From Paracoccaceae bacterium (lineage in GTDB: Bacteria > Pseudomonadota > Alphaproteobacteria > Rhodobacterales > Rhodobacteraceae), in assembly GCA_006227805.1 (NCBI GenBank), contig SBFT01000290.1:1-27511 (forward strand): a DNA stretch of 27,511 nucleotides, in the 5' to 3' direction. The position numbers were made by a program, and so were the translations under genes. The first letter of the stretch is position 1, and each line of letters begins with the position of its first letter. Shown piece after piece: positions 2,012 to 27,511 of this stretch. The notes below the pieces were generated by a model. That model had not been told where the DNA came from. It made no database searches and saw only the letters and a program-made list of their open reading frames with translations.

Positions 2012-2099
2012 GGCGTCCCCCGTTTCGCTTAACACCTTCACCAGATTGCAGCAGTCCCGCCCCCCGGCACAAGGGCCATGCGCGGCCTCTCCGAAACCT

Positions 2100-2129
2100 T
2101 GGACAAGACGCGCGGGCCCCGCCTAGGGT
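2100..2129 (+). promoter_or_regulatory. Candidate sigma70-type promoter for the M81 peptidase gene
   Basis: TGGACA (2100-2105), 18-nt spacer, TAGGGT (2124-2129, TAnnnT), 40 nt upstream of ATG 2170. Motif match only. Confidence 0.35.
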
Positions 2130-2169
2130 GGCGAAAGCCGACTCGCATTCACTTCGAAGGACAAGGGCA

Positions 2170-3618: not shown

Positions 3619-3692
3619 AGGCGATTTGGGGGCAGTAGATGCGCAAAGTTGCCCCTGGGTAAGACAATCCGGTTTCGTGAACATATGAAGAT

Positions 3693-3721
3693 TTGACACA
3701 AGACGGCTTCTTCCGAATAGT
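3693..3721 (+). promoter_or_regulatory. Candidate sigma70 promoter for the ABC transporter operon
   Basis: Perfect TTGACA (3693-3698), 17-nt spacer, AATAGT (3716-3721; 4/6 match to TATAAT), in an AT-richer intergenic region. Confidence 0.5.
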
Positions 3722-3768
3722 TGGTCCAGCGCACGCAAGCTGCGCCAAGAACAGACAGGGAGACTGAA

Positions 3769-5364: not shown

Positions 5365-5382
5365 ACCTGACCGGTTCGGACG

Positions 5383-5407
5383 GCGGCGCGGGCACGACCC
5401 GCGCCGC
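5383..5407 (+). terminator. GC-rich intercistronic hairpin after the SBP gene (mRNA stabiliser or partial terminator)
   Basis: Perfect 10-bp stem GCGGCGCGGG/CCCGCGCCGC with a 5-nt loop (CACGA), followed only by ATTTCCC (weak U tract). Confidence 0.6.
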
Positions 5408-5439
5408 ATTTCCCTCCCTTCAAATCGGGTTGATCTCGC

Positions 5440-6381: not shown

Positions 6382-7283
6382 TGTCCACCGCAGCGATCTC
6401 ACCCGCCAGGCAGACGATGCGCCGCATGGCCCAGAACACATCCGTCCTGTTCGGCGGTGTTCTTGTGCTGCTGGTCGTGCTGATGGCGCTGCTGGCGCCC
6501 TATCTCGGCACGCGCGATCCGGCGGGCATCTCGCCCAAGGACCGCAACCAGCCCCCGGGATACGAGACGACGGTGCGCGACCGCGACACCGGGCAGCGCG
6601 TCAGCGTGGAATACCGGCTGGGAACCGACACGCTGGGCCGCGACGTCTACAGCCGCGTGGTCTACGGCGCCCGCATCTCGCTGATCGTGGGGGTGTCGGT
6701 CGCCGCCATCGCCATCGTCATCGGCATGGCGATCGGGGTGCTGGCGGGCTATGTGCGCTGGCTCGACGGCATCATCATGCGGGTGATGGATGGGTTGATG
6801 GCCATCCCCGCGATCCTGCTGGCCATCGCGGTCGTGTCGCTGTTCAGCGCCGGGCTTCTCAGCGTGATCATCGCGATCGTCGTGCCCGAGGTGCCACGGG
6901 TCGTGCGCCTTGTGCGCTCGATCGTGCTGTCGATCCGCGAGGAGCCTTACGTCGAGGCCGCGATCACCGCGGGCACGCGAACCCCCACCCTTCTGGTCCG
7001 CCACGTCCTGCCCAACACCATCGCGCCCCTGATCGTGCAGGGAACCTTCATCGTGGCCTCCGCCATCATCGTCGAGGCGATCCTCAGCTTCCTCGGGATC
7101 GGCATCCCGCCCGAAATTCCCACCTGGGGCAACATCATGGCCGAGGGCCGGTCGGTGTTCCAGCTGCACCCCCACAACATCCTCTATCCCGGGATCATCC
7201 TGGCCATCACGGTGCTGGCGGTGAACATGCTGGGCGACGGCCTGCGCGACACGCTCGACCCGCGCTTTGCAAAGCGCGTGTGA
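6381..7283 (+). CDS. Peptide ABC transporter permease (DppC/OppC-like)
   Basis: LGTDTLGRDVYSRVVYGARISL, EEPYVEAA, HVLPN, LSFLGIG, WGNIMAEGR, GDGLRDTLDPR. TGATG overlap with the preceding gene. Confidence 0.95.
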   Translation: MSTAAISPARQTMRRMAQNTSVLFGGVLVLLVVLMALLAPYLGTRDPAGISPKDRNQPPGYETTVRDRDTGQRVSVEYRLGTDTLGRDVYSRVVYGARISLIVGVSVAAIAIVIGMAIGVLAGYVRWLDGIIMRVMDGLMAIPAILLAIAVVSLFSAGLLSVIIAIVVPEVPRVVRLVRSIVLSIREEPYVEAAITAGTRTPTLLVRHVLPNTIAPLIVQGTFIVASAIIVEAILSFLGIGIPPEIPTWGNIMAEGRSVFQLHPHNILYPGIILAITVLAVNMLGDGLRDTLDPRFAKRV

Positions 7284-7293
7284 GGTCAGGGGC

Positions 7294-8934
7294 ATGGATC
7301 AGAAATACGTCCTCGAAGTCAGCGGCCTGACCGTCAGCCTGCCGAAGAACGCCGACCGCCCCAACGCGGTGGAAGACATCAGCTTCACCGTCGCCCCCGG
7401 CGAGATCGTCTGCGTGGTGGGCGAAAGCGGATCGGGCAAGTCGGTCACGGCATCCGCCGTGATGGGCCTTCTGCCCGACGCGCTGCGCCCCACGGGGGGC
7501 CGGACGCTGCTGGAAGGCGAAGACACGCTGAAGGCCGAGAAGAGCCGCCTGCGCGACCTGCGCGGCACCCGCATGGCGATGATCTTCCAGGAACCGATGA
7601 CGGCGCTGAACCCGGTCACGCGGGTGGGCGAACAGATCGCCGAGATGCTGGAGATTCACACCAGCATGACCGCGGCGGAACGCCGGAGCCGCGCCATCGA
7701 GACCATGGACGCCGTGCACCTGCCCGATCCCGAGAAGATGGTGGACGCCTTCCCGCATCAGCTGTCCGGCGGTCAGCGCCAGCGCATCATGATCGCGATG
7801 GCCCTCGTGCTGGACCCCGCGCTGCTGATCGCGGACGAACCGACGACGGCGCTCGATGTGACGACGCAGGCGCAGATCCTCAAGCTGATCAAGGAAATGC
7901 AGGAGCGCCGCGGCACGGGTGTGCTGTTCATCACCCATGACTTCGGCGTGGTGGCGGAAATCGCGGACCGCATCGTGGTCATGCAGCATGGCCGCATCGT
8001 CGAATACGGCGACCGCGACGACGTCCTGCGCCGGCCCAAGGCGCCCTATACCCAGATGCTGATGGCCTCGGTCCCCTCGATGACGCCGCCCGAGCGCAGC
8101 GCGAAGACCGGCGAGACCGCGGTCGAGGTCAAGGCGCTGAACAAGGTCTACGGCAAGACCGGGTGGCTGTCGAAACAGCGGATCGTCCACGCCGTCAAGG
8201 ACGTGGACCTGATGCTGCGCAAGGGAGAGACGCTGGGCATCGTGGGCGAAAGCGGATCGGGCAAGTCGACCGTCGCGCGCTGCATCGCGCGGCTGATCGA
8301 CCCGACCTCGGGCTCGATCAGCCTGCACGGCACGGAAATCGCGACGATCAGCCAGGCCCAGCTGCGCCCGCACCGCCGCAAGGTGCAGATCGTGTTCCAG
8401 GACCCCTACCGCTCGCTCAACCCGCGGCGCACCATCGGCCAGTCGCTGATCGAGGCGCCCGTGAATTTCGGGATGCCCGAAGCGCAGGCCCTGCAGATGG
8501 CGCGCGACCTGATGGAGCTGGTGGGCCTGTCCGGCGACGCGCTGGAACGCTATCCGCACCAGTTTTCCGGCGGACAGCGCCAGCGCATCTGCATCGCCCG
8601 CGCGCTGGCGGTGGAACCCGAGGTCCTGATCGCGGACGAGGCGGTCTCGGCGCTGGATGTCAGCGTGCAGGCGCAGGTCTTGAAGCTGCTCGACGACATC
8701 CGGGTGAAATACAACCTCGCGATGCTGTTCATCACCCATGACCTGCGCGTTGCCGCCCAGATCTGCGACCGGCTGATCGTCATGCAGAAGGGCGTGATCG
8801 TGGAACACGGACCCACGCGCAAGGTCTACCAGGAGCCCCAGCACCCCTATACGCGCCTGCTCCTGGATGCGGCCCCCGGGCAGGGCATGACCTTCGGAGC
8901 CGAGATCGCACCCGCCGCAGCCCAAGGAAACTGA
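7294..8934 (+). CDS. Peptide ABC transporter ATP-binding protein with two fused NBDs (DppD/F-like)
   Basis: Two Walker A motifs (GESGSGKS), two signatures (LSGGQRQR, FSGGQRQR), two Walker B motifs (IADE) and two H-loops (ITHD). ATG 7294 preferred over 7267. Confidence 0.95.
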   Translation: MDQKYVLEVSGLTVSLPKNADRPNAVEDISFTVAPGEIVCVVGESGSGKSVTASAVMGLLPDALRPTGGRTLLEGEDTLKAEKSRLRDLRGTRMAMIFQEPMTALNPVTRVGEQIAEMLEIHTSMTAAERRSRAIETMDAVHLPDPEKMVDAFPHQLSGGQRQRIMIAMALVLDPALLIADEPTTALDVTTQAQILKLIKEMQERRGTGVLFITHDFGVVAEIADRIVVMQHGRIVEYGDRDDVLRRPKAPYTQMLMASVPSMTPPERSAKTGETAVEVKALNKVYGKTGWLSKQRIVHAVKDVDLMLRKGETLGIVGESGSGKSTVARCIARLIDPTSGSISLHGTEIATISQAQLRPHRRKVQIVFQDPYRSLNPRRTIGQSLIEAPVNFGMPEAQALQMARDLMELVGLSGDALERYPHQFSGGQRQRICIARALAVEPEVLIADEAVSALDVSVQAQVLKLLDDIRVKYNLAMLFITHDLRVAAQICDRLIVMQKGVIVEHGPTRKVYQEPQHPYTRLLLDAAPGQGMTFGAEIAPAAAQGN

Positions 8935-8937
8935 GCC

Positions 8938-10107
8938 ATGAACATCCTGCCCGCCATCGAGAATGCCAGGCCCGAACTCGAGGCCATCTTCAAGGACCTG
9001 CACGCCAACCCGGAAATCGGCTTCACCGAGACGCGCACCGCCGCCGTCGTGGCCGAAAAGCTGCGCGCCTATGGCGTCGACGAAGTGCACGAGGGGATCG
9101 GCAAGACCGGCGTCGTGGCCCTGATCCGGGGCAAGGGCGACGGCAACCGCCGCGTGGGCCTGCGCGCCGACATGGACGCCCTGCCCATCCACGAGGAAAC
9201 GGGCCTGCCCTATGCCTCGACCCGGCCCGGCGTCATGCATGCCTGCGGCCATGACGGGCATACCACGATGCTTCTGGGCGCGGCCAAGCACCTGGCCGAG
9301 ACGCGCGATTTCTCGGGCACCGCGGTCCTGATCTTCCAGCCCGCGGAGGAAGGCCTGGGCGGCGCGCGCGGAATGCTGGCGGACGGCCTTTTCGAGCGGT
9401 TTCCCTGCGACGAGGTCTACGGGATGCACAACTGGCCCAACGGCGCCCCCGGCAAGTTCGGGATCGTGAAGGGCGCGGCGATGGCGGGGGCCAGCTTTTT
9501 CGACATCCACATCAAGGGCAAGGGCAGCCACGGGGCGATGCCGCAGGACAGCCGCGACCCCCTGATCGTGGCCAGCGCCCTGGTGGGACAGATCCAGACC
9601 ATCGTGTCGCGCAACATCGCGCCGCTCGACGCCTGCGTGGTGTCGGTGACGCAGATCCACTCGGGATCGGCCTACAACGTCGTGCCCGACACCGCTTCGC
9701 TGGCGGGCACGATCCGCTATTTCAAGGACGAGGTCTGCGCACTGGCCGAGCGGCGGATGCAGGAGCTCTGCGACGGGGTGGCCATGGCCTACGGCGTCCA
9801 GATCACCCTGCACCTGCGCAACATCTTCAACGTGCTGCAGAACGACGCCGACCTGTCGGACGCCTACATGGAAGCCGCGGGCGACATCGTGGGCGAGGAG
9901 AACGTGACCCTGCGCACTGAACCCGTCACCGGATCCGAGGACTTCGCCGACATGCTGCGCGTGGTGCCGGGGGCCTATTGCACGCTGGGCCATCTGGGCA
10001 CGGTGCCGGTGCACAATCCGGGCTATGTCCTCGACCCCGGCATCTTGCCGGTCGGGGCCTCGATCCTGGCGCGGATCGTGGAACGGCGGCTGGCACCGGT
10101 GGCGTGA
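8938..10107 (+). CDS. M20 family amidohydrolase (M20D, hippurate hydrolase/aminoacylase-like)
   Basis: LHANPEIGF, LRADMDALPI, MHACGHDGHT, FQPAEEG, GMHNWP, GSEDF, HNPGY. Confidence 0.93.
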   Translation: MNILPAIENARPELEAIFKDLHANPEIGFTETRTAAVVAEKLRAYGVDEVHEGIGKTGVVALIRGKGDGNRRVGLRADMDALPIHEETGLPYASTRPGVMHACGHDGHTTMLLGAAKHLAETRDFSGTAVLIFQPAEEGLGGARGMLADGLFERFPCDEVYGMHNWPNGAPGKFGIVKGAAMAGASFFDIHIKGKGSHGAMPQDSRDPLIVASALVGQIQTIVSRNIAPLDACVVSVTQIHSGSAYNVVPDTASLAGTIRYFKDEVCALAERRMQELCDGVAMAYGVQITLHLRNIFNVLQNDADLSDAYMEAAGDIVGEENVTLRTEPVTGSEDFADMLRVVPGAYCTLGHLGTVPVHNPGYVLDPGILPVGASILARIVERRLAPVA

Positions 10108-11240
10108 TGACATCCTATCTCGATCTCCCGTTCGACATCGACACCATGCTGGCGGGCCTGCGCCCCTGGATCGAATGCGAAAGCCCCACCTTCGACGCCG
10201 CCGCCGTCAACCGCATGATGAGCCTCGCGTCCTATGATCTGTCCCAACTGGGCACGGTCGAACGCATCCCTGGCCGCATGGGCTTCGGCGACAGCCTGCG
10301 CGTGCGCCTGCCCCATCCCCATGCGGGCCAGCCCGGCATCCTGATCGCGGGGCACATGGACACGGTCCATCCCGTGGGCACGCTGGCCAGGCTGCCCTTC
10401 CGGCGCGACGGCGACGTCTGCTATGGCCCCGGCATCCAGGACATGAAGGGCGGCAATTTCTGCGCGGTCGAGGCCCTGCGCCAGCTGGCCCGCGCGGGGA
10501 TGCAGACCCCCCTGCCCGTCACGATCCTGTTCACGCCGGACGAGGAGGTGGGCACGCCCTCGACCCGCGAACTGATCGAGGCCGAGGCCGCGCGCAACCG
10601 CTACGTGCTGATCCCCGAACCCGCCATGCCGGACGGAGGCGTGGTGATCGGGCGCTATGCGATCGCGCGCTTCAACCTGCGCACCATCGGACGGCCCAGC
10701 CATGCCGGCGCGCGGCCGGGCGACGGCCGCTCGGCGATCGCCGCGATGGCCAGGCGCATCCTTCAGATCGAGGCGATGACCGGCCCCGACTGCACCTTCA
10801 GCGTGGGCGTGATCCATGCCGGGCAATGGGTGAACTGCGTCTCCTCCAGCTGCGAGGCCGAGGCGCTCAGCATGGCCAAGCGGCAGGAGGACCTGGACGA
10901 CGGCGTGGCGCGGATGCTGGCCCTGTCGGGCGAGGCGGACGAGGTCGTCTTCGAGGTGACGCGCGGCGTGACGCGGCCTGTCTGGCAACCCGACCAGCCC
11001 GGCACGATGCAGATGTATGCGCTTGCGCGCGAGATCGCGGGCGAGATCGGCTTCGATCTGTCCTGCGGCAGCGCGGGCGGCGGCTCGGACGGGAACTTCA
11101 CCGGGGCGATGGGGATTCCGACGCTCGATTCGCTGGGCGTGCGCGGGCGCGGCCTGCACACCCTGACCGAGAACATCGACGTCGCCAGCCTGCCGGAACG
11201 GGCCCGCCTGATGGCCGGGCTGATGATGCGGCTGGGCTGA
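10107..11240 (+). CDS. M20 family peptidase, glutamate carboxypeptidase (CPG2)-like
   Basis: GHMDTV, GPGIQDMKGG, PDEEVG, PEP, GRPSHAG, GGGSDGNF, GRGLH. ATG 10107 overlaps the upstream TGA (TGATG). No signal peptide. Confidence 0.88.
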   Translation: MTSYLDLPFDIDTMLAGLRPWIECESPTFDAAAVNRMMSLASYDLSQLGTVERIPGRMGFGDSLRVRLPHPHAGQPGILIAGHMDTVHPVGTLARLPFRRDGDVCYGPGIQDMKGGNFCAVEALRQLARAGMQTPLPVTILFTPDEEVGTPSTRELIEAEAARNRYVLIPEPAMPDGGVVIGRYAIARFNLRTIGRPSHAGARPGDGRSAIAAMARRILQIEAMTGPDCTFSVGVIHAGQWVNCVSSSCEAEALSMAKRQEDLDDGVARMLALSGEADEVVFEVTRGVTRPVWQPDQPGTMQMYALAREIAGEIGFDLSCGSAGGGSDGNFTGAMGIPTLDSLGVRGRGLHTLTENIDVASLPERARLMAGLMMRLG

Positions 11241-11371: not shown

Positions 11372-13663
11372 ATGAAATTCCGCTTTCCCATCATCATCAT
11401 CGACGAGGACTTCCGCTCGGAGAACTCCTCCGGCCTGGGCATCCGCGCCATGGCCAAGGCCATCGAGGACGAGGGCTTCGAAGTGGTGGGCGTCACCAGC
11501 TATGGCGACCTGTCGCAATTCGCCCAGCAGCAATCGCGCGCCAGCGCCTTCGTCCTGTCGATCGACGACGAGGAATTCACCCCCGGCCCCGATCTCGATC
11601 CGGCGGTGGTCAACCTGCGCAACTTCATCGAGGAAGTGCGCTGGAAGAACGCCGAGGTACCGATCTATGTCTATGGCGAGACCAAGACCAGCCGCCATCT
11701 GCCCAACGACATCCTGCGCGAGCTGCACGGCTTCATCCACATGTTCGAGGACACGCCGGAATTCGTCGCGCGCCACATCCTGCGCGAGGCGAAAAGCTAT
11801 ATCGAGAGCATCCAGCCCCCCTTCTTCAAGGCACTGGTCGATTATGCCGGGGACGGGTCCTATTCCTGGCATTGCCCGGGCCATTCCGGCGGCGTCGCCT
11901 TCCTGAAAAGCCCCGTGGGGCAGATGTATCACCAGTTCTACGGCGAGAACATGCTGCGCGCGGATGTCTGCAACTCGGTCGAGGAGCTGGGCCAGCTGCT
12001 CGACCACAACGGCGCCATCGGCGCCTCCGAACGCAACGCCGCGCGGATCTTCAACGCCGATCACTGCTTTTTCGTGACGAACGGGACCTCGACCTCGAAC
12101 AAGATGGTCTGGCACCACACGGTGGTCCCCGGCGACGTGGTGGTGGTGGACCGCAACTGCCACAAGTCGATCCTGCACTCGATCATCATGACCGGCGCGA
12201 TCCCGGTCTTCCTGAAGCCCACGCGCAACCATTACGGCATCATCGGCCCGATCCAGCAGCGTGAATTCGAGATCGAGACCATCCGCGAGAAGATCCGCCA
12301 GAACCCGCTTCTGGCCCATGTGGACGCCGACACGGTCAGGCCGCGCATCCTGGCGCTGACGCAATCGACCTATGACGGGGTGCTCTACAACACCGAGACG
12401 ATCAAGACCCTGCTCGACGGCCATGTCGAGAACCTGCATTTCGACGAGGCCTGGCTGCCGCACGCCGCCTTCCACCCCTTCTATGGCACCTATCACGCGA
12501 TGGGCCGCAAGCGCGCGCGCCCGCGCCAGTCGGTGACCTATGCCACCCAGTCGATCCACAAGCTGCTGGCCGGGATCAGCCAGGCCAGCCATATCCTGGT
12601 GCAGGACAGCCAGGAGACGAAACTGGACCGGCATCTCTTCAACGAAGCCTACCTGATGCACATCTCGACCAGTCCGCAATATTCGATCATCGCCAGCTGC
12701 GACGTGGCCGCCGCGATGATGGAGCCACCGGGCGGAACCGCGCTGGTCGAGGAAAGCCTGCTCGAGGCGATGGATTTCCGCCGCGCCATGCGCAAGGTCG
12801 AGGCTGAATACGGGGCCGAGGACTGGTGGTTCCGGGTCTGGGGCCCGGACGCGCCCGAGGAGGAAGGCATCGGCGAACAGCGCCCCTGGGTCCTGCGCCG
12901 CACCGATACCGACGGCATCCAGAAGGCCGACGGCAAGGAAAGCTGGCACGCCTTCGGCGACATGTCCCCGGGCTTCAACATGCTGGACCCGATCAAGGCG
13001 ACGCTGATCACGCCGGGCCTGCGCATCGACGGTCATTTCGAGGACACCGGCATCCCTGCCTCGATCGTGACCAAATACCTGGCCGAACATGGCGTGGTGG
13101 TCGAGAAGACCGGCCTCTACAGCTTCTTCATCATGTTCACGATCGGGATCACCAAGGGGCGCTGGAACACGCTTCTGGCGGACCTGCAGCAGTTCAAGGA
13201 CGATTACGCCAGGAACCAGCCGCTCTGGCGCTGCATGCCGGAATTCTGCGCCAGGCATCCCAGATACGAGAAGATGGGCCTGCGCGACCTGTGCCAGCAT
13301 GTGCACCGGCTTTACGCCAAATACGACGTCGCGATCCTGTCGACCGAGATGTATCTCAGCGACCTCACCCCGATGATGACGCCCAGCGAGGCCTATGCCC
13401 ACATCGCGCGGCGCAGCACGGAACGGGTGCCGATCGACGATCTGGAAGGCCGCGTCACGACCAGCCTGGTGACACCCTATCCCCCCGGCATTCCGCTTCT
13501 GGTTCCGGGCGAGGTCTTCAACCGCAGGATCGTGGACTACCTGAAGTTCAACCGCGAATTCGCGCGCGAATGCCCGGGCTTCGAGACCGACATTCACGGA
13601 TTGGTCCAGGAAACCGGCGCGGACGGCGTGGTGCGCTACTACGCCGATTGCGTCGCGGCCTGA
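11372..13663 (+). CDS. Fold-type I PLP-dependent lysine/ornithine/arginine decarboxylase with N-terminal wing (receiver-like) domain
   Basis: WHCPGHSGG, FVTNGTSTSNK, VDRNCHKS, TQSTYDG, HFDEAW, TQSIHKL (PLP lysine), STSPQY, PYPPGIPLLVPGE. SD-like AGAAGGA upstream. Substrate cannot be assigned from the sequence alone. Confidence 0.93.
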   Translation: MKFRFPIIIIDEDFRSENSSGLGIRAMAKAIEDEGFEVVGVTSYGDLSQFAQQQSRASAFVLSIDDEEFTPGPDLDPAVVNLRNFIEEVRWKNAEVPIYVYGETKTSRHLPNDILRELHGFIHMFEDTPEFVARHILREAKSYIESIQPPFFKALVDYAGDGSYSWHCPGHSGGVAFLKSPVGQMYHQFYGENMLRADVCNSVEELGQLLDHNGAIGASERNAARIFNADHCFFVTNGTSTSNKMVWHHTVVPGDVVVVDRNCHKSILHSIIMTGAIPVFLKPTRNHYGIIGPIQQREFEIETIREKIRQNPLLAHVDADTVRPRILALTQSTYDGVLYNTETIKTLLDGHVENLHFDEAWLPHAAFHPFYGTYHAMGRKRARPRQSVTYATQSIHKLLAGISQASHILVQDSQETKLDRHLFNEAYLMHISTSPQYSIIASCDVAAAMMEPPGGTALVEESLLEAMDFRRAMRKVEAEYGAEDWWFRVWGPDAPEEEGIGEQRPWVLRRTDTDGIQKADGKESWHAFGDMSPGFNMLDPIKATLITPGLRIDGHFEDTGIPASIVTKYLAEHGVVVEKTGLYSFFIMFTIGITKGRWNTLLADLQQFKDDYARNQPLWRCMPEFCARHPRYEKMGLRDLCQHVHRLYAKYDVAILSTEMYLSDLTPMMTPSEAYAHIARRSTERVPIDDLEGRVTTSLVTPYPPGIPLLVPGEVFNRRIVDYLKFNREFARECPGFETDIHGLVQETGADGVVRYYADCVAA

Positions 13664-13706: not shown

Positions 13707-14042
13707 TCAGTCGCGCGGGTCCTGCGTGTCGAGCTGGGCATCCGCCTCGGCGATGCCCCAGGGCTTGATCCCCATGCGCAAGGCCGCGCGCCCGATCATG
13801 TGCGCCCCGATGGGTGCCGTCAGCAGCAGGAAGATCACGATCAGCACGCAACGCAGCACCACGCCCGCGTCGGCGAAATGCAGCGCCACGCCCGCCAGCA
13901 CCAGGCCCGATCCCAGCGTGCCGACCTTGGTGGCCGCGTGCATCCGGATGTAGACATCCGGCAGGCGAAAGACGCCGATCCCCGCCACGACGATGAAGAT
14001 CGCGCCCGAGAAGATCAGGAAAGCGGTCAGGGCCTCGATCAT
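13707..14042 (-). CDS. mrpG: Mrp/Pha/Mnh cation:H+ antiporter subunit G
   Basis: From ATG 14042: MIEALTAFLIFSG...GIGVFRLPDVYIRMHAATKVGTLG...FLLLTAPIGAHMIGRAA. ATGA overlap with mrpF. Confidence 0.93.
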   Translation of the reverse strand: MIEALTAFLIFSGAIFIVVAGIGVFRLPDVYIRMHAATKVGTLGSGLVLAGVALHFADAGVVLRCVLIVIFLLLTAPIGAHMIGRAALRMGIKPWGIAEADAQLDTQDPRD

Positions 14043-14338
14043 GGCTGGTTCTCCGCATCCTCGCGCCGCAGGACCTGGCGCTCGGCGAAGCGGGCCAGCG
14101 CGACGGTCGCCAGAAAGCCCACCAGGGCCAGCACCAACGCCACGTCGAGGAAGGTGGAATCCCCCGACCGGATCGCGGCCAGTCCGCAGAAGGCGACGAT
14201 GGCCACCGTCATCATGTCCAGCGCCACGATGCGGTCCGCCAGGCTGGGTCCGACGGCCAGGCGCCAGCCCGCGAAGGCGACCGAGGCGAAGACCGCGACG
14301 AAACCCAGCGTCACTGCCCAATACAGAAGCTCGGTCAT
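14039..14338 (-). CDS. mrpF: Mrp antiporter subunit F
   Basis: From ATG 14338: MTELLYWAV...RLAVGPSLADRIVALD...LDVALVLALVGFLATVALARF. ATGA overlap with mrpE. Confidence 0.93.
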   Translation of the reverse strand: MTELLYWAVTLGFVAVFASVAFAGWRLAVGPSLADRIVALDMMTVAIVAFCGLAAIRSGDSTFLDVALVLALVGFLATVALARFAERQVLRREDAENQP

Positions 14339-14820
14339 GTCCTGTCCTCCACGGCGTCGATCACCCATTTCTCCATCCCCGATTTCAGGGCGCGGGTCAC
14401 GGCCTCGGGGTCGTCCGCGAACATCGCGTGCACCTTCAGGGTCTTGCGGTCGGGGCTGACATCGATGCTCAGCGTGCCGGGCGTCAGCGAGATCAGGTTC
14501 GTCACCAGAAGGATGCCGGTATCGGTCTTCACGTCCAGCGGAACGTCGATGATCGCGGGCCGCGCGCGGTGGCGCGGCGTGACCACGTCCCAGAACACCT
14601 GGAAGCTCGACACGATCAGTTCGTAATGGAACAGCACGATCAGCTTCAGCCAGTACCAGACCCGCAGGAAATAGCTCGAGCGCGTGCCCGTCAGCGGCTG
14701 AAGCAGCCACAGCGTCACGTAGCCCACGACCAGTCCCGAGAGGACTGTCAGCCAGGTGAAGCCCCCGAAGAGCAGCGCCCAGGCGGCGGCCATGACCAGG
14801 TTTGCCGCGAAATGGCTCAT
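14335..14820 (-). CDS. mrpE: Mrp antiporter subunit E
   Basis: RPAIIDVPLD, NLISLTPGTLSIDVS, LKVHAM. ATGA overlap with mrpD. Confidence 0.94.
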   Translation of the reverse strand: MSHFAANLVMAAAWALLFGGFTWLTVLSGLVVGYVTLWLLQPLTGTRSSYFLRVWYWLKLIVLFHYELIVSSFQVFWDVVTPRHRARPAIIDVPLDVKTDTGILLVTNLISLTPGTLSIDVSPDRKTLKVHAMFADDPEAVTRALKSGMEKWVIDAVEDRT

Positions 14821-16316
14821 GCGTCACCTCCCAGAACGGCGGCCAGATAGGCGCTGGGATCCAGAAGCTGGGCCGCCGCGCGTTCGGCGAAGACGACGAA
14901 GGGTTCCGGGAAGAAGCCGATCACCAGCGTCAGGGCCGCCAGCGCCGCGATGGGCAGGAGAAGCGGCCGCATCTGCGCGCGCGGCACGCGCGACATCACG
15001 GGATCGATCCCCTCGGGATGGGCCTTCCAGAACGCCTCGGCCCAGATCTTGGTCATCGAGTAGATCGTCAGAAGGCCCACGACCAGCGCGACGCCCGCAA
15101 GGACCCAGGCCTCGACCTCGAGCGAGGCCGCGACCAGCACGTATTTCGCCCAGAAGCCCGACAGCGGCGGAAAGCCCGCCAGCGAAAAGGCCGGGATCAG
15201 GAACAGGACGGCCAGCAGGGGCGCGGACTTGTAGAGGCCCCCGATCTTCGGCAACTCGGTCGATCCGGTCAGGCGTTCGACCACGCCGCCGACCAGGAAC
15301 AGGTTCGCCTTCACGATGATGTGGTGGACCAGGTAGAAGACCGCGCCCGCCACCGCCAGAGGCGTCAGCAGCGCCAGGCCCAGGATCATGTAGCCGATCT
15401 GGCTGACGATGTGGAAGGACAGGATCTTGCGGATGTCGTTCTGCGCCGCCGCCCCAAGGACGCCCGTGATCATCGTCAGCGCCGCCACCCAGAGAAGGAT
15501 GTCATGGGTGAAGCCCACGTCGCCGTTGAAGACCAGCGTGAACATCCGGATCAGCGCATAGACGCCCACCTTGGTCAGCAGGCCGGCGAAGACCGCCGAG
15601 ACCGAGAAGGCCGGCGTGTGATAGGCGGCGGGCAGCCAGAAGAACAGCGGAAAGACCGCCGCCTTCACCCCGAAGGCGATCATGAACATCACCGCGACGA
15701 CCGTGACCAGCCCCTGGTTTTCCAGCTGCGGCACCGTGCGCGCCAGGTCCGCCATGTTCAGCGTGCCCGTCATGCCATAGAGCAGGCCCACCCCGGCCAG
15801 GAACAGGATGGTCGAGATCAGGTTCAGCGTGACGTATTTCACCCCCCCGTCGATCTGTTCGCGCCGCCCGCCCAGGACCAGAAGCCCGAAGGACGAGATC
15901 AGCATGACCTCGAACCAGACATAGAGGTTGAAGAGGTCGCCCGTCAGGAACGCGCCGACGACGCCGCCGATCAGCACGTTGAACAGCGCGTGATAGCCCA
16001 GATACTCGGCCCGCTCGCCGATGTCGGACAAGGCATAGACCGACACCGCCAGCGCCGTGATCGCGGTGATCACGACCATGACCGCGCCCAGCAGATCGGC
16101 CACCAGCGTGATCCCGAAGGGCGCGGCCCATTGGCCCATCTGCCCCGCGATCACGCCCTCGCGCAGCACCTGCTGCATCAGCGCGGCTGCGGCCAGCAAC
16201 AGAAGGACATTGCCGCCCACGCTGATCCAGCGCCCGGCCGGTCCCATGCGCAACAGGAAGGACAGCACCGCCGTCAGGAAGGGCAGCACCAGCGGTGTAG
16301 CAAGATACCAGCTCAC
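14817..16316 (-). CDS. mrpD: Mrp antiporter subunit D
   Basis: GTG start. LTGDLFNLYVWFEVML, FGVKAAVFPLFFWLPAAY, LLTKVGVYA, KILSFHIVSQIG, GFPPLSGFWAK. Confidence 0.95.
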   Translation of the reverse strand: MSWYLATPLVLPFLTAVLSFLLRMGPAGRWISVGGNVLLLLAAAALMQQVLREGVIAGQMGQWAAPFGITLVADLLGAVMVVITAITALAVSVYALSDIGERAEYLGYHALFNVLIGGVVGAFLTGDLFNLYVWFEVMLISSFGLLVLGGRREQIDGGVKYVTLNLISTILFLAGVGLLYGMTGTLNMADLARTVPQLENQGLVTVVAVMFMIAFGVKAAVFPLFFWLPAAYHTPAFSVSAVFAGLLTKVGVYALIRMFTLVFNGDVGFTHDILLWVAALTMITGVLGAAAQNDIRKILSFHIVSQIGYMILGLALLTPLAVAGAVFYLVHHIIVKANLFLVGGVVERLTGSTELPKIGGLYKSAPLLAVLFLIPAFSLAGFPPLSGFWAKYVLVAASLEVEAWVLAGVALVVGLLTIYSMTKIWAEAFWKAHPEGIDPVMSRVPRAQMRPLLLPIAALAALTLVIGFFPEPFVVFAERAAAQLLDPSAYLAAVLGGDA

Positions 16317-16678
16317 GTCCGGGCATCCTCGCGCGGTTCGGCGACGCGCATCTCGTCGCTGTTGAGGGTCCCGAGCGAGGTATAGGCGCGGAACACCAGC
16401 ACCAGGGCGAAGGCGAAGAGACCGAAGCCGATCACGATGGCCGTCAGCACCAGCGCCTGCGGCAGCGCGTTCGCGACGGTCCCGACCGGCGCGTCGAGGC
16501 CTTCCGGGACCAGGGGCGGCTTGCCTTCGGTCAGGCGTCCGGCGGTGAAGATCGTCAGGTTGGCGGCGTTCGAGATCAGCACCAGCCCGAAGATGAAGCG
16601 CAGCACGTTGCGCGCCAGCATCAGGTAGACCGAGGCCGCGACCAGCACGCCGATGGTGATGGCGAGAAGGGCTTCCAT
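16313..16678 (-). CDS. mrpC: Mrp antiporter subunit C
   Basis: From ATG 16678: MEALLAITIG...YLMLARN...LISNAANL...ANALPQALVLTAIVIGFG. Confidence 0.94.
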   Translation of the reverse strand: MEALLAITIGVLVAASVYLMLARNVLRFIFGLVLISNAANLTIFTAGRLTEGKPPLVPEGLDAPVGTVANALPQALVLTAIVIGFGLFAFALVLVFRAYTSLGTLNSDEMRVAEPREDART

Positions 16679-17097
16679 CAGATCTCCTCCTCCATCGCGA
16701 AGACCAGTGTCAGAACCGATCCGAACACGACGAGGTAGACCCCGATGTCGAAGACGAGGACCGTGGACAGCGGCAGGCCCTTGTCCGTCTCGGTGGCCCC
16801 CAGGAACAGCCATTGCCCGGTGAACAGCGCGTCCCCGAAGAGCGCGGCCGCGATCCCCGCCAGAAGCGCGATGCCAAGGCCCGCGACGGCGATGTTCTGC
16901 GGCAGGACACGCAAGGCGCGGCGCGCGTCCCCGGTGCCGCAGGCGATGGCATAGAGGACAAAGCCGGTCGACCCGATCAGGCCGCCGATGAAACCGCCGC
17001 CCGGCTCGTTGTGGCCGCGCAGCAGCATGTAGACCGAGAACAGCAGCAACAGCCCCGACAAGGCCCGCGTGCCGGCCTGCAGGATCACGGAATTCAC
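16678..17097 (-). CDS. mrpB: Mrp antiporter subunit B
   Basis: From GTG 17097 (GTGA overlap with the mrpA stop): NSVILQAGTR...LRGHNEPGGGFIGGL...FDIGVYLVVFG. Confidence 0.92.
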   Translation of the reverse strand: MNSVILQAGTRALSGLLLLFSVYMLLRGHNEPGGGFIGGLIGSTGFVLYAIACGTGDARRALRVLPQNIAVAGLGIALLAGIAAALFGDALFTGQWLFLGATETDKGLPLSTVLVFDIGVYLVVFGSVLTLVFAMEEEI

Positions 17098-19397
17098 GAT
17101 GCATCCTCCCCTTTGCGGGTCCGGCTCGAACGGCCCGTCGGCCCCTGGTCGGTGGTGCGCAAGAGCGCATAGGCCGCCAGCGCCGCGATCACGACAACCG
17201 CGATCTCGCCGAAGGTGTCGAGCGCCCTGAAATCGACCAGGATCACGTTGACGATGTTGCGTCCGAAAGCCTCGGGCCAGGAGGTGACCTCGAAGTAATC
17301 GGTCAGGCGGCGATCCATCGGCACTTCCAGGACGGCCAGCAGGGTCAATGTGACCACCGCGCCCACCGCCAGGCCCAGAAGCGCGTCGCGCGGACGCCAG
17401 TCGCGCGTTCCCGCAGGGTCGAGCGCGGGCAGGCGCAGAAGCGCAACCGCGACCAGCACGACGACCAGCGTCTCGACCAGAAGCTGGGTGATCGCGACGT
17501 CGGGCGCACCGAAGACGATGAAGATCATCGCGACGCCGATGCCCACGACGCCGAGGCTGGCCATCGCGGTGATCCGCGACCCCGTCAGCGCCGCCATCAC
17601 CGCGCCGGCCATGATCAGCACCGCCAGCGCCAGGTTCTTCCAGGTCACCGAGGACATGTCCGGCAGTCCCGGCAGCGCATCGCGCGCCAGCATCGTGCCG
17701 CCAAGGCCGACAAGGACCGTCAGGAACGTCACCAGGATGTAGATGCGCAATTCGCCCGATTGCAGGACGCGCGTCTGCCAGGCGGCCAGCCCCTTCAGAC
17801 CCTCGAGGAAGCGGTCCCAGCCATTGTCGAAGTTCGGCGCGGCTAGTTCTGCCCGGGCGAGCGCGGCACGCAGGCGCACATGGCCAAGGTAGATCGCCAG
17901 GCCCAGCGCCACGGTGGCGATGGACAGGATCAGCGGCATGTTCACGCCGGCCCAGAGCTTGAGGTCCTTCGCGTCCTCGGCCGACCCCAGCAGCGACGCC
18001 ACCGTCGGCGCGATCAGCGTGTCCTGAAGAAGGGCGGGAAAGACGCCGAAGACAACGCCCAGCACCGCCAGGATGACCGGACCCGCCAGCATCTGCCAGG
18101 GCGCCTCGTGCGGGGTGTGGGGCATCGCGCCGCCCGCGGGACGCCAGAAGGGCCGGAACGCGACCACGCCCGCCACCGCCAGCATCAGCGCATTGGCGAT
18201 CACCAGCGCGCCCACGACCAGCGCGGGCCCGGACCCCGCCTCGAGCGCGCCCGCGTAGAGAAGCTCCTTCCCGATGAAGCCCAGGAAGGGCGGGAAACCC
18301 GCCATCGACAGGGACGCCAGCGCCGCGGCCAGCGCGGTGAAGGGCATCGCGCGGGCCAGCCCGCCCAGGATGTCCGCCTCGCGCGTGCCGGTGCCGTGGT
18401 CGATGCAGCCCACCACCAGGAACAGCCCCGCCTTGTAGAGCGAATGGACGATCAGGAAGGTCGCGAAGGCGGTCATCGCGTAGCCGGACTCCTGGCCCAG
18501 GAACAGCGTCAGCGTGCCCAGCGCCATCAGCGTCGTATAGGCCAGCGCCTGTTTCAGATCGCTCTGGCGCAGGGCAAGGACGCTGGCGAAGACGGCGGTG
18601 AAGCCCCCGGCGATGGTCAGCGTCCACATCCAGACATCGGTGCCCGCGAACCCCGGATGCAGCCGTGCCATCAGGTAGACGCCCGCCTTCACCATGGTGG
18701 CGGAATGGAGGAAGGCCGACACGGGCGTGGGCGCGGCCATCGCGTTGGGCAGCCAGAAATGGAACGGGAACTGCGCGGATTTCGTGAAGGTGCCCGCCAG
18801 AATCAGGATCAGGATCGGCAGGTAGAGCGCATGGGCCTTCAGCGCGTCACCCTGTGCCAGGATCACCGACAATTCGAAACTGCCCGCGACCATGCCCAGA
18901 AGGATGAACCCCGCCAGCAGCGCCAGCGCCCCGGCGCCGGTGACGAAGAGCGCCTGCAAGGCGGAACGGCGGCCCTTGTAGGTCTCGTGCCCGAAACCGA
19001 TCAGCAGGTAGGAGGTGATCGTCGTCAGTTCCCAGAACACGAACAGCGCGATCAGGTTGTCGGCCAGCACCAGCCCCAGCATCGACAGCATGAAGCCGGC
19101 CAGGAACAGGGCAAAGCGCGCGAATTGCGGATGCCCCGCCAGGTAGGTGTTGGAATAGAGAAACACCAGCGCGCCGATCCCGCTGATCAGCAGTGCGAAG
19201 GTCAGGCTGAGACCGTCGACCAGGAACGACAGCGAGATGCCCAGCGACGGCACCCAGTCCCATTGCAGGCGCAGCACCTCGCCCGCCGAGACGGCGGGCA
19301 GAAAGCCCAGGAACCAGACGAAAAGCCCGGCGGCCAGACCCACCGGAGCCAGGCCCACCAGCCCGTTCCCCTTCGCCTGCGCTGCGGTCTCACTCAT
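17094..19397 (-). CDS. mrpA: Mrp antiporter subunit A (separate from MrpB; group 1 arrangement)
   Basis: From ATG 19397 (ATGA overlap with usp). VFWELTTITSYLLIG, TKSAQFPFHFWLPNAMAAPTPVSAFLHSATMVKAG, GAPDVAITQLLVE, GRNIVNVILVDFRALDTFGE. Confidence 0.95.
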   Translation of the reverse strand: MSETAAQAKGNGLVGLAPVGLAAGLFVWFLGFLPAVSAGEVLRLQWDWVPSLGISLSFLVDGLSLTFALLISGIGALVFLYSNTYLAGHPQFARFALFLAGFMLSMLGLVLADNLIALFVFWELTTITSYLLIGFGHETYKGRRSALQALFVTGAGALALLAGFILLGMVAGSFELSVILAQGDALKAHALYLPILILILAGTFTKSAQFPFHFWLPNAMAAPTPVSAFLHSATMVKAGVYLMARLHPGFAGTDVWMWTLTIAGGFTAVFASVLALRQSDLKQALAYTTLMALGTLTLFLGQESGYAMTAFATFLIVHSLYKAGLFLVVGCIDHGTGTREADILGGLARAMPFTALAAALASLSMAGFPPFLGFIGKELLYAGALEAGSGPALVVGALVIANALMLAVAGVVAFRPFWRPAGGAMPHTPHEAPWQMLAGPVILAVLGVVFGVFPALLQDTLIAPTVASLLGSAEDAKDLKLWAGVNMPLILSIATVALGLAIYLGHVRLRAALARAELAAPNFDNGWDRFLEGLKGLAAWQTRVLQSGELRIYILVTFLTVLVGLGGTMLARDALPGLPDMSSVTWKNLALAVLIMAGAVMAALTGSRITAMASLGVVGIGVAMIFIVFGAPDVAITQLLVETLVVVLVAVALLRLPALDPAGTRDWRPRDALLGLAVGAVVTLTLLAVLEVPMDRRLTDYFEVTSWPEAFGRNIVNVILVDFRALDTFGEIAVVVIAALAAYALLRTTDQGPTGRSSRTRKGEDAS

Positions 19398-20359
19398 GCC
19401 TTCGTGCCCTCGGCCAGCTGGACCGGGCTGACGAAGCCCCTGGGCTTGACCGTCAGCACCGAACAATCAAGACGGTTCAACACGGTTTCGGCCGTATTGC
19501 CGATGAAGAGACCGGCAATTCCCGTCCGTGCCAGCGTGCCCATGACAAGCGTGTCGATCCTTTCGCGATCCGCATGTTCGATCAGAACATCGGCCGGAAC
19601 GCCCTTGACGTGAAGCACGCGCGTGTTCTGGGCGAAAGCGGTGAAATCGTCCATCAGCTTTTTCAGGCCCGAGGCACTGTCCCGCTCGCATTTGTCGAGG
19701 ATTGCCTGAATTTCGGGCTCGGGCATGTTCACGAAGGAATGCCGCAGGGTCTGTTCCTCTTCCAGCTGCCAGGCATTGACCACGTCCAGACGGGCGCCAT
19801 CGTGCACGCAAAGCGAGGTGGCCAGTTCCATCACCATGTGATTGAGGCCATCGCGGACAGGGTCCGAGGGGTCGGGATCGACCGCGGCCATGATGCGCCT
19901 GGCGTTCGGTTCGGTCGTGCTGTTGAGCAGCCAGACAGGGCATGGGCACTTGCGCAGAAGATGCAGGTCGGGGCCGCGCAGGGTCCGGCTTTCGGGCGTG
20001 CGCTGTGCTCCCTTCAGGACAAGATCGTGACCGTTGGCCAGAACCGCGCGGATCGTCTCGATGAACCCCACGCCCTGAAACACTTGCGTGCGGACGTTCA
20101 GACCCTCGCTGCGCAGGGGCTCGGCCAGGGTGTCCAGGCGATCGGCGTGAAACCCGATCACGCGATCCTCGACCTCGCGCGCACGCATCCCGGGCAGCGC
20201 CGAGAAGAGCCGGGCGAAATCACCCGGGGCGGTGTCGATGATGTCGACCAGCGTCAGCGTCGCGCCATTGGCCTCGGCCAGCCAGCGGGCGCGCGCGAAC
20301 AGCGCGTCGGTGGCGCTGGCCGCATCCGCCACCACCAGGATGTTCCTGAACCTGTTCAT
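19394..20359 (-). CDS. Tandem-domain universal stress protein (UspE-like)
   Basis: From ATG 20359: MNRFRNILVV; HDLVLKG...DLHLLRKCPCPVWL; IMAAVD; IDTLVMGTLARTGIAGLFIGNTAETVLNRLDCSVLTVKP. Confidence 0.92.
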   Translation of the reverse strand: MNRFRNILVVADAASATDALFARARWLAEANGATLTLVDIIDTAPGDFARLFSALPGMRAREVEDRVIGFHADRLDTLAEPLRSEGLNVRTQVFQGVGFIETIRAVLANGHDLVLKGAQRTPESRTLRGPDLHLLRKCPCPVWLLNSTTEPNARRIMAAVDPDPSDPVRDGLNHMVMELATSLCVHDGARLDVVNAWQLEEEQTLRHSFVNMPEPEIQAILDKCERDSASGLKKLMDDFTAFAQNTRVLHVKGVPADVLIEHADRERIDTLVMGTLARTGIAGLFIGNTAETVLNRLDCSVLTVKPRGFVSPVQLAEGTKA

Positions 20360-20387: not shown

Positions 20388-20416
20388 AGATAGGGTCGCA
20401 TCCCTTATTGATCCAA
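20388..20416 (-). promoter_or_regulatory. Candidate promoter for the usp-mrpABCDEFG operon
   Basis: Minus strand TTGGAT, 17 nt, CTATCT, resembling alphaproteobacterial TTG...CTATAT/CTATCT promoters. Predicted +1 near 20381, about 22 nt before the usp ATG. Confidence 0.45.
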
Positions 20417-20432
20417 TCGAAAAAGGAAGTAT

Positions 20433-20457
20433 TTTCGATAGAAATCCTCTATCGAAA
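20433..20457. promoter_or_regulatory. LysR/OxyR-type operator (ATAG-N7-CTAT core)
   Basis: Perfect 9-bp inverted repeat TTTCGATAG-aaatcct-CTATCGAAA. It contains the T-N11-A LysR box and the OxyR ATAG-N7-CTAT unit, and lies between the divergent usp and lysR starts. Confidence 0.8.
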
Positions 20458-20471
20458 CCCCCAGAGCCCCC

Positions 20472-21392
20472 ATGCCGACGCTCCAGCAACTCCGATATCT
20501 CGTCGCTGTGGACGATACCCTGCATTTCCGCCGCGCCGCCGAGGCCTGCCATGTCACGCAACCCACGCTCAGCGCCCAGATCAAGGACCTGGAAAGCAAG
20601 CTGGGTGCGGTGCTTGTCGAACGAAGCCGCGCGCGGGTGGTGATGACGCCCCTGGGCGCGGCGGTCGCCGATCATGCCAGACGCGCCCTGCGCGAGGTGG
20701 ACGAGATCCGCAACCTCTCGGTCCTGAACGGCGGCACGCTGCAAAGCACGATCAAGGTGGGCATCGTGCAATCGCTCGGGTCCTACCTTCTGCCGCTGAT
20801 CGTGCCCGACCTGCACCAGAGCCACCCCAAGCTGAAGCTTTATGTCCGCGAAGGCCTGCCGCATCACCTGACCGAGGCGCTGGCGACCGGCGCGGTCGAT
20901 CTTCTGCTGTTCCCGCTGCCGGTGCGGGGCGCGGAATACGACCAGCTGTCGCTGTTCCGCGAGCCGCTTCTTCTGGTGATCCCCCATGACCACCCCTTCG
21001 CCGCGCGCGACAACATCACGCCGGACCTGCTGAAGGGCGAGACGATCCTGGCGCTGGAACCGGGGCACAAGCTCTACGAGCAGGTGCGCGTGATCTGCGA
21101 CCAGTATGGCGCGCATCTGTCTCACGACTACGAAGGCACGTCGCTCGATACCCTGCGGCAGATGGTGGCGATGGGGATGGGCGTGTCGCTTCTGCCCGCG
21201 CTCTACGTCAAGTCCGAGGTCGCTCACCAGGACATCGTCGTCGCCCGCCGCTTCGAGGGGACGCCGCCCTCGCGCACGATCGGCATGGTCTGGCGGCAGG
21301 GCACGGTGCGCGAACAGGAATACCGCGATCTGGGGCGCGAGATCTGCGCGATCCTGAAGGCCGGCGCGCCGGAACTGACGATCCTGGGCTAG
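20472..21392 (+). CDS. LysR family regulator, OxyR-like but lacking the peroxidatic cysteine
   Basis: HTH LHFRRAAEACHVTQPTLSAQI, close to E. coli OxyR HFRRAADSCHVSQPTLSGQI. The sensing region reads LEPGHKLYEQVRVIC versus OxyR LEDGHCLRDQAMGFC. Also TSLDTLRQMV and RTIGMVWR. Confidence 0.92.
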   Translation: MPTLQQLRYLVAVDDTLHFRRAAEACHVTQPTLSAQIKDLESKLGAVLVERSRARVVMTPLGAAVADHARRALREVDEIRNLSVLNGGTLQSTIKVGIVQSLGSYLLPLIVPDLHQSHPKLKLYVREGLPHHLTEALATGAVDLLLFPLPVRGAEYDQLSLFREPLLLVIPHDHPFAARDNITPDLLKGETILALEPGHKLYEQVRVICDQYGAHLSHDYEGTSLDTLRQMVAMGMGVSLLPALYVKSEVAHQDIVVARRFEGTPPSRTIGMVWRQGTVREQEYRDLGREICAILKAGAPELTILG

Positions 21393-26858: not shown

Positions 26859-27377
26859 TCAGGAGCGGTGATCGACCGGGTGGAAGATCGGCAGATCGGA
26901 GTTGGCCGGGCGGCAGGCGGGACGCAGGCTGGCCGAAATCTCCAGCGCGCGGCGATGCGTGTGACGGTGGCGATACATGAAGCGCGCATAGCGCGCGATC
27001 ACGGGCGTCATCGCTCCGGCGTCGATCGTCACCCGGTCGATCCAGACCGAACCCGAGCCATCGGGATGCACTTCCAGAACGTGGCGCCAGGACCGGACAC
27101 CCTTGCCGCCCTCCGAGGTCTCGATCCGGCGGGTCTCGTCGCAGAGGGCATCGACACGGATCTGGTAATCGGGCGACCGGAACATCCCGAAGATGCGGAT
27201 GTCGGTTTCATAGGTGCGGCCCGGTTCCATGTCCTCGGCCGGAAGCCGGTCATAGCGCGAGATGCGCCGCGTGGCCTCGATCAGGTCGGCGAAGGACCGG
27301 GCGCGGTCGAACATGGCATCGGCGTCGTCGGAATAGCGCGCCTTGACCGTCAAATCGACAGGTGCAGCTGAAATCAT
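26859..27377 (-). CDS. SRPBCC/START-like (polyketide cyclase/dehydrase-fold) hypothetical protein
   Basis: ATG 27377 after GGGAGAG. Pattern ...IETSEGGKGVRSWRHVLEVHPDGSGSVWIDRVTIDAG followed by a C-terminal helix (ARYARFMYRHRH) fits the helix-grip fold. Family recognised by eye only. Confidence 0.6.
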   Translation of the reverse strand: MISAAPVDLTVKARYSDDADAMFDRARSFADLIEATRRISRYDRLPAEDMEPGRTYETDIRIFGMFRSPDYQIRVDALCDETRRIETSEGGKGVRSWRHVLEVHPDGSGSVWIDRVTIDAGAMTPVIARYARFMYRHRHTHRRALEISASLRPACRPANSDLPIFHPVDHRS

Positions 27378-27511
27378 GCTGAAATACTCTCCCCTGCGCG
27401 GCTGCATGACCGCGCCTGTGTCAACTGGTTTCGGTTAACGGCCCGTTCAGCAGCCGAACGGACAGACCCAGCCTGCGGGGGAAATTCGTCTCAAATTTGA
27501 AGTATTTGGCA

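Follow-up and report, generated by a model that had tools for sequence, protein, structure and literature searches.

We analyzed a 27,511-nucleotide stretch of DNA (hereafter, the window) from a Rhodobacterales metagenome-assembled genome (Paracoccaceae bacterium, GenBank assembly GCA_006227805.1, contig SBFT01000290.1), in which a gene on the forward strand encodes a LysR-type regulator that is related to the peroxide sensor OxyR but carries Lys200 in place of the peroxidatic Cys199. We consider it likely that this protein, although derived from OxyR, is not a redox sensor but a local regulator of the divergent operon that consists of the universal stress protein gene usp and the mrp genes for a multisubunit cation/proton antiporter and, more broadly, that the family to which it belongs regulates Na+-extrusion genes. 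The loss of the Cys, the monophyly of the Cys-less clade, the conserved neighborhood and the conserved operator are observed directly; what we infer is binding to DNA, the sign of regulation and the kind of effector. Given that the genes of this family are nearly always located head-to-head with Na+/H+ antiporter genes, the family probably controls sodium export rather than peroxide defense. The regulator gene encompasses the following features.

20472..21392, + strand: coding sequence of the Cys-less OxyR-like LysR-type regulator (P0001), 306 aa, identified from the open reading frame, its translation and Pfam matches to HTH_1 and LysR_substrate
20481..20657, + strand: winged helix-turn-helix DNA-binding domain, residues 4-62 (PF00126, 71.6 bits; alignment)
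20736..21323, + strand: regulatory (effector) domain, residues 89-284 (PF03466, 157 bits)
20772..20774, + strand: codon of Ser101, equivalent to OxyR Thr100 (alignment)
20859..20861, + strand: codon of Pro130, equivalent to OxyR Thr129 (alignment)
21066..21071, + strand: codons CAC AAG of His199-Lys200, equivalent to OxyR His198-Cys199, Lys200 replacing the peroxidatic Cys199
21096..21098, + strand: codon TGC of Cys209, equivalent to the OxyR resolving Cys208, nine residues after Lys200 and variable in the clade
21273..21275, + strand: codon of Arg268, equivalent to OxyR Arg266 and invariant across canonical and Cys-less proteins

Loss of the sensing Cys within the OxyR family

The DNA reads GAA CCG GGG CAC AAG CTC ... 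TGC across the former active site, so that Lys200 is encoded by AAG at 21069-21071 and Cys209 by TGC at 21096-21098. This reading, together with the alignment to E. coli OxyR (taken from NC_000913), confirms the assignments made in an earlier note on this DNA, namely, Lys at the Cys199 position, a Cys nine residues further on, Ser101 and Pro130. The N-terminus, MPTLQQLRYL, is common to the orthologues. The earlier note had raised the question whether the GHKL motif is conserved in a clade, and the substitution proved to be clade-wide rather than private to this genome: among the 120 closest homologues (63-79% identity), 57 have GHKL and 57 have GHRL, that is, K or R in 114/120, and in 80 loci from named genomes, the Cys199 position is occupied by R (45), K (25) or Q (6). 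The AAG codon is unchanged in metagenome contigs of three independent studies and, in one strain, is flanked by synonymous changes (21065 GGG>GGA and 21074 CTC>CTT), as would be expected from purifying selection. That the metagenome-assembled genome behind the window is incomplete (74% complete, 423 contigs) would suit a sequencing or assembly error at Lys200, or a functionless, decaying paralogue, but we regard this explanation as refuted by the prevalence of K or R in the homologues, the retention of AAG between synonymous changes, the intact reading frame, and the conservation of the protein (53-81% identity over many genera), its synteny and its operator.

A global search against 1.84 billion cluster representatives, of which the best 150 were inspected, places this substitution in a broader context. 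The canonical residues T-T-H-C-C-R at OxyR positions 100, 129, 198, 199, 208 and 266 are present in 80 of these representatives; among the remaining 70, 69 lack Cys199 and one is gapped, the prevailing pattern being [T/S]-P-[H/Y]-[R/H/Q/...]-[C/A/S]-R. Across the family, Pro at position 129 covaries with the loss of Cys199, and the Cys199 position itself accommodates R, H, Q, P, A, L and G, Lys being found in only 2 of the 150. The proposal that Lys200 is a special protonatable switch is not supported by this distribution because Arg, Gln and His freely replace Lys (K and R alternate within the subclade of the regulator), and Ala or Thr occurs in a sister subclade that is also mrp-linked. An Arg at this position should not titrate at physiological pH.

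In a careful maximum-likelihood tree of 84 sequences, with which a quick tree agrees, the OxyR-like proteins split from other LysR regulators, including E. coli NhaR, CynR and HcaR, with support of 100/99, and all 64 Cys-less sequences form one clade (100/100) that has a long stem and is nested within the canonical OxyRs. The regulator thus falls inside the OxyR family, which bears out its earlier description as an OxyR-derived paralogue. The katG-linked OxyRs of Rhodobacterales are further from the Cys-less clade than are E. coli OxyR and three other alphaproteobacterial proteins with the GHC[FL] motif (96/90 and 95/91). A single loss of the sensing Cys follows from this tree. In agreement with the tree, the recognition helix of the regulator, QPTLSAQI, resembles the E. 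coli OxyR helix (QPTLSGQI) more than the one in the OxyR of the host (QPALSLQI); the earlier claim of an OxyR-type helix-turn-helix holds, and the operator, with its ATAG-N7-CTAT core, is of the OxyR type as well. The top match among solved structures is Pseudomonas aeruginosa OxyR (4x6g, 203 bits), and the top NCBIfam model is OxyR (NF008361, 245.5 bits, or 244.9 in the genome search), with a score below the equivalog cut-off of 329 bits. This cut-off is a weak test in alphaproteobacteria because the katG-linked OxyR of the host, at 241.7 bits, also falls below it.

The 2.75-Mb host assembly encompasses three OxyR-like genes. One is the separate canonical oxyR that the earlier note had suggested looking for: located on contig C291, it encodes GHCF...C and is divergent from katG. 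The same arrangement, a canonical GHCF oxyR divergent from katG elsewhere in the genome, was found in 9/9 other genomes with the mrp-linked paralogue that were checked. The third gene (contig C90, L003:3-752, - strand) is truncated by the contig end, reads GPSYAL at the Cys199 site and retains the Cys208 equivalent; it belongs to the Tyr198-Ala199 subclade and directly follows a TRAP DctM-type permease gene rather than adjoining mrp. In several genomes, genes of this sister subclade, with Tyr198 and Ala or Thr199, likewise diverge from mrp. Cys-less genes of the GH[K/R]L and SPAY-A/T-L types occur in tandem beside the same usp-mrp operon in Roseicyclus, Rhodophyticola and relatives of these (L044, L045 and L047; named loci L121, L125-L134, L136, L138, L140, L144, L146 and L147). 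The nearest named relative of the regulator protein comes from an Aestuariivita sp. metagenome-assembled genome (81% identity).

The earlier note had also emphasized the retention of the resolving Cys. Cys209 is present in the regulator but is not conserved across the clade, given that this position is C in 22, S in 13, A in 5 and T in 1 of the 41 aligned clade members, and is C in 66/80 and another residue in 14/80 of the named-genome loci. There is no invariant Cys in the mrp-linked clade, and 6/80 orthologues are entirely Cys-free. The OxyR Thr100 position is S in 31 and T in 10 members of the clade, and T in all canonical OxyRs. In a survey of 67 OxyRs, the peroxidatic Cys and Arg278 were universally conserved, Ser at the first active-site position was found in 3%, Thr129 was shown to aid H2O2 reduction, and a C206S mutant was catalytically dead (PMC6294878). 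With the peroxidatic Cys, which is universal in canonical OxyRs, absent and no other Cys invariant, a thiol-based peroxide switch can in all probability be excluded for the family. It is most improbable that the regulator is still a peroxide or redox sensor, that is, a one-Cys OxyR that operates via Cys209 or another thiol. The presence of Cys209, the descent of the family from OxyR, and the label 'hydrogen peroxide-inducible genes activator' that several databases give to relatives (family proteins being otherwise labeled generically) would agree with such a sensor, but the peroxidatic Cys is missing, Cys209 is replaced by Ser, Ala or Thr in 19/41 clade members, Thr129 is replaced by Pro, the score is under the OxyR equivalog cut-off, and the genomes in question carry a canonical oxyR-katG pair. 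Furthermore, a Pfam scan detected no peroxide-defense gene (katG, ahpC or oxyS) in the window, in accord with the earlier reading.

Divergent sodium-transporter genes

Immediately upstream of the regulator gene, on the opposite strand, are the following genes.

19394..20359, - strand: usp, a tandem universal stress protein gene (PF00582, two stretches), first gene of the divergent operon
13707..19397, - strand: mrpA(B)CDE(F)G, multisubunit cation/proton antiporter operon (Pfam), the proposed target

The mrp genes were recognized by Pfam matches to Proton_antipo_N/M, MbhD/E, Oxidored_q2, MNHE and PhaG_MnhG. The listed usp open reading frame reaches 20401, but homologues begin with MNRFRNIL, so that the true start is probably the ATG at 20359 and the spacer between the divergent genes is 112 bp rather than 70 bp long. 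The stop codon of usp overlaps the mrpA ATG (ATGA at 19394-19397), which indicates a single operon.

This arrangement is conserved in Rhodobacterales. The regulator gene is divergent from mrp, with or without usp, in 16/16 orthologous loci of the order-level genome sample; in the 80 named-genome loci, mrpA is upstream and divergent in 65 (the upstream sequence sufficed for a judgment in 70), and usp is inserted between the regulator gene and mrpA in 49. Conversely, the Mrp type of the window was detected in 41 of the 200 other sampled genomes of the order, and a Cys-less OxyR-like gene adjoins it in 32 of these 41. The comparison, made by inspection, revealed no Cys-less OxyR-like gene beside the commoner Mrp type, the MrpA of which is longer (~40% identity). 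Five genomes (G086, G101, G074, G081 and G111) have one in-frame stop in their matches to the MrpA type of the window; the search may have read through gene boundaries, or the operons may be decaying. G101 and G074 yielded no high-scoring regulator copy, and in G086, the regulator is located on a different contig.

Outside Rhodobacterales, distant members of the family (42-60% identity) were collected from other alphaproteobacterial families, in a class-level sample and in named metagenome-assembled genomes. Their divergent neighbors are as follows.

nhaA: L141, L155, L160, L161, L166
usp, then nhaA: L167, L168, L169
usp-mrp: L159
Sbt_1 Na+-dependent transporter: L162
small open reading frame, then Na+/Ca2+ exchanger (Na_Ca_ex): L174
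TerC: L173
isocitrate dehydrogenase (icd): L149, L165, L170, L171, L148
aldehyde dehydrogenase: L164
MFS transporter: L152

In L148, an F0 ATP-synthase operon is located between the regulator gene and icd, and icd is followed by a DUF465 gene and an mrpA-like gene. In L142, the regulator gene directly follows an mrp operon and has the same orientation. Given that Mrp and NhaA belong to unrelated protein families, the recurrent pairing of the regulator with either one suggests a common role in the handling of Na+ and H+. The earlier suggestion that the protein senses something other than peroxide, such as pH or Na+, would fit these conserved Na+/H+ antiporter neighbors.

Two other candidate links within the window were rejected. 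The downstream tamB and tamA genes are not conserved neighbors in the 16 order-level or the 80 named loci, and the Orn/Lys/Arg decarboxylase gene at 11372-13663, which converges on the end of the mrp operon, has no match in the 16 orthologous loci. The decarboxylase gene follows a peptide-utilization cluster (2-11240) that consists of a penicillin-amidase family gene, an MlrC-like M81 peptidase gene, two M20 peptidase genes and the genes of a peptide ABC transporter (binding protein, two permeases and a fused double ATPase). Downstream of tamA, an open reading frame for a 182-aa protein (26859-27407, - strand) has a coding-like G+C content at third codon positions and no Pfam match.

The proposed operator and a candidate promoter in the spacer

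The spacer between the regulator gene and usp contains the following conserved elements.

20437..20453, no strand assigned: perfect dyad GATAG-N7-CTATC, extended TTCGATAG-N7-CTATCGAA, in the 112-bp spacer; proposed primary recognition site
20407..20422, no strand assigned: second conserved box ATTGATCCAATCGAAA; proposed activation site over the -35 element of the usp-mrp promoter
20388..20416, - strand: TTGGAT-N17-CTATCT, candidate usp-mrp promoter proposed from conservation

With the HTH_1 and LysR_substrate domains in the protein, the divergent usp-mrp operon and a T-N11-A type dyad in the spacer, the locus has the layout of a LysR-type system. The dyad GATAG-N7-CTATC has no other match in the window and is one of two in the 2.75-Mb assembly. 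The other exact match (contig C220:2091-2107; L157:1501-1517) is flanked by the 3' end of a further LysR gene and by an open reading frame for a putative DUF1445-type hydro-lyase, which precedes a solute-binding protein gene; the regulator may have a second target here, or the match may be due to chance.

The core of the dyad, ATAG-N7-CTAT, keeps its position in 16/17 order-level and 61/80 named loci (21-43 bp upstream of the regulator ATG in most of these) and, when up to one mismatch is allowed, precedes the gene in 18/19 distant family members, irrespective of the neighbor. When 63 unique spacers were aligned on the dyad, the second box appeared at a fixed offset of 31 bp, and a conserved TAGGG block became apparent further out. 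TAGGG and the conserved block ATCCAA lie in the candidate promoter and yield its TTGGAT-N17-CTATCT when read on the minus strand. This promoter, which we take to resemble an alphaproteobacterial promoter, would put the center of the dyad near -64 and the second box over -35. A recognition site combined with an activation site in this manner is the textbook layout for LysR regulators.

The motif ATAG-N7-CTAT matches the half-site of E. coli OxyR, but the earlier contention that the regulator kept its DNA specificity has to be qualified: when up to one mismatch was allowed, ATAG-N7-CTAT was not found in the oxyR-katG spacers of these genomes. A shared operator with the resident OxyR was rejected on this basis, and the two paralogues appear to have separate operators.

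The former peroxide pocket, possible effectors and the proposed regulon

An AlphaFold2 model of the regulator, built from a 62-sequence alignment, is of high confidence, with a mean predicted local distance difference test score of 92.9 and a predicted template modeling score of 0.79. The regulatory domain of the model matches reduced E. coli OxyR (1i69) with template modeling (TM) scores of 0.92-0.93 and a root-mean-square deviation (rmsd) of 2.0-2.1, and slightly less well the oxidized form (1i6a; TM 0.89, rmsd 2.7). The best full-length fold match after the OxyRs is CcmR/NdhR (5y2v), at ~22-23% identity across the aligned fold. In the model, the helix 200-212 starts with residue 200. The clade-conserved differences from canonical OxyR cluster in the 98-104 loop, where IPT..P is replaced by VQS..S, with further ones at positions 129, 147, 228 and 244. 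Because the clade-specific positions in the 98-104 loop are conserved, the loop of the pocket appears to be remodeled yet maintained.

These observations suggest the following scheme. A LysR-type regulator that evolved from OxyR and lost peroxide sensing would exert local control over the divergent usp-mrpABCDEFG operon. In the standard LysR arrangement, a tetramer would bind the GATAG-N7-CTATC dyad, ~64 bp upstream of the putative usp-mrp start, and also a weaker box across the -35 region. In response to a signal tied to Na+ or alkali stress, presumably read in the remodeled former peroxide pocket (Ser101, Pro130, His199, Lys200 and Arg268, with no redox-active Cys there), the tetramer would activate usp-mrp. 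The regulator would repress its own gene, the ATG of which is 18 bp past the dyad.

Several points weigh against the reading of the family as local regulators of Na+-extrusion genes. About a fifth of the genomes with the Mrp type of the window lack an adjacent copy of the regulator; icd (5 loci), aldehyde dehydrogenase and the MFS transporter are neighbors without an evident link to ions; related genomes are non-independent samples; and neither the effector nor the sign of regulation can be read from a gene neighborhood. A scan of the spacer for E. coli-consensus promoters found none, so that the usp-mrp promoter is proposed from conservation, and no RNA run covers the regulator locus.

Within the reading of the protein as a regulator of antiporter genes, direct sensing of Na+ or Li+ is one of three options for the effector, a possibility raised by analogy with NhaR. 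A different option, which we consider possible although rather unlikely, is that the effector is not Na+ or pH as such but a small anion or an anionic metabolite, such as bicarbonate, sulfate or phosphate, 2-oxoglutarate or NADP+, that would bind in a more cationic pocket, the charge being contributed by Lys or Arg200, His199 and Arg268. The K, R, H or Q found at the Cys199 position beside the invariant equivalents of His/Tyr198 and Arg266 are consistent with such a site. Moreover, OxyR Cys-to-Ser mutants and OxyR2 crystals hold a sulfate in the same pocket, hydrogen-bonded to the equivalents of Thr100, Cys199 and His198 (PMC6294878). The cyanobacterial NdhR/CcmR, the best non-OxyR full-length fold match, has 2-oxoglutarate and NADP+ as its effectors and governs sbtA along with the Mrp-like operon mnh (PMC4390856). 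In addition, one family member faces an Sbt-type transporter and five face isocitrate dehydrogenase, the latter possibly a hint of a metabolite effector. Against an anionic effector, the Tyr198-Ala199 subclade has no basic residue at this site and yet is mrp-linked.

We assign a distinctly lower probability to the possibility that the regulator requires no effector at all. The long side chain of residue 200 would then fill the pocket and lock the protein in one conformation, and control would be exerted through the protein level, autoregulation or partners such as Usp. This would agree with the tolerance of the Cys199 position for R, H, Q, P, A, L and G, which is unusual for a ligand-contacting residue, with the resemblance of the model to reduced OxyR, residue 200 capping the helix 200-212, and with the recurrence of the tandem Usp gene as the first gene in mrp and nhaA operons alike. 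However, the strong conservation in the clade of the equivalents of Ser/Thr100, Pro129, His/Tyr198 and Arg266, along with the 98-104 loop, argues for a working site, and an antiporter operon would be expected to be inducible.

Comparison with characterized systems puts this regulator closest to OxyR, with which it shares the fold, the domain order, the best sequence and structure matches, the nesting in the OxyR clade, the equivalents of His198 and Arg266, and the OxyR-like recognition helix. It differs from OxyR in the absence of the peroxidatic Cys, the replacement of Thr129 by Pro, the lack of conservation of the resolving Cys and the sub-cut-off score; furthermore, the family was never found beside katG or ahpC but faces Na+ transporter genes, and a separate canonical OxyR with a different operator is present in the same genome. 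E. coli NhaR, described as the only validated Na+-selective protein regulator (PMC9337991), resembles this system in being a LysR regulator encoded beside a Na+/H+ antiporter gene, and some members of the family face nhaA itself. In E. coli, however, nhaR is downstream of nhaA on the same strand, whereas the family described here is divergent from the antiporter genes. Orthology with NhaR was rejected given that, in the trees, E. coli NhaR is found among the outgroup LysR-type regulators, on a very long branch, and no NhaR model was detected among the best 25 NCBIfam matches of the regulator. The regulator is best read as an analog, not an ortholog, of NhaR. Synechocystis NdhR/CcmR also exemplifies LysR control of genes of the Na+ cycle, its targets including the Na+-dependent bicarbonate transporter gene sbtA, ndh-I3 and the Mrp-like mnh complex (PMC4390856), but it belongs to another LysR lineage and is a repressor. 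HhmR of Halomonas was considered as a relative and set aside: it was modeled on the DarR structure, and the respective paper reports no mrp link. Full-text literature searches found no characterized member of the Cys-less OxyR-derived family.

Beyond the local regulation of usp-mrp, we tentatively suggest that the Cys-less clade is a second, independently evolved family of transcription factors responsive to Na+ or to Na+/alkali stress, in which the OxyR pocket would have become an ion or small-anion site and which would control unrelated Na+ transporters (Mrp, NhaA, the Sbt-type transporter and the Na+/Ca2+ exchanger) across Alphaproteobacteria.

The family is best seen as part of the OxyR lineage among LysR regulators, with both the sensor and the regulon altered. 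The name 'hydrogen peroxide-inducible genes activator' is probably wrong for its members and would inflate the counts of OxyR regulons in marine alphaproteobacteria. The lineage offers a clear case of a sensor changing its job, from a thiol-based peroxide sensor to a non-redox regulator, in which the genomes retain the ancestral type together with the derived paralogue, the two having different operators and targets. Sodium sensing at the level of transcription is poorly known in bacteria, and here, a large family is tied to four unrelated types of Na+ transporters. The cultivable organisms that carry its members, Tateyamaria, Litoreibacter, Thalassovita, Salipiger and Rhodovulum, make the question of sodium sensing directly testable.

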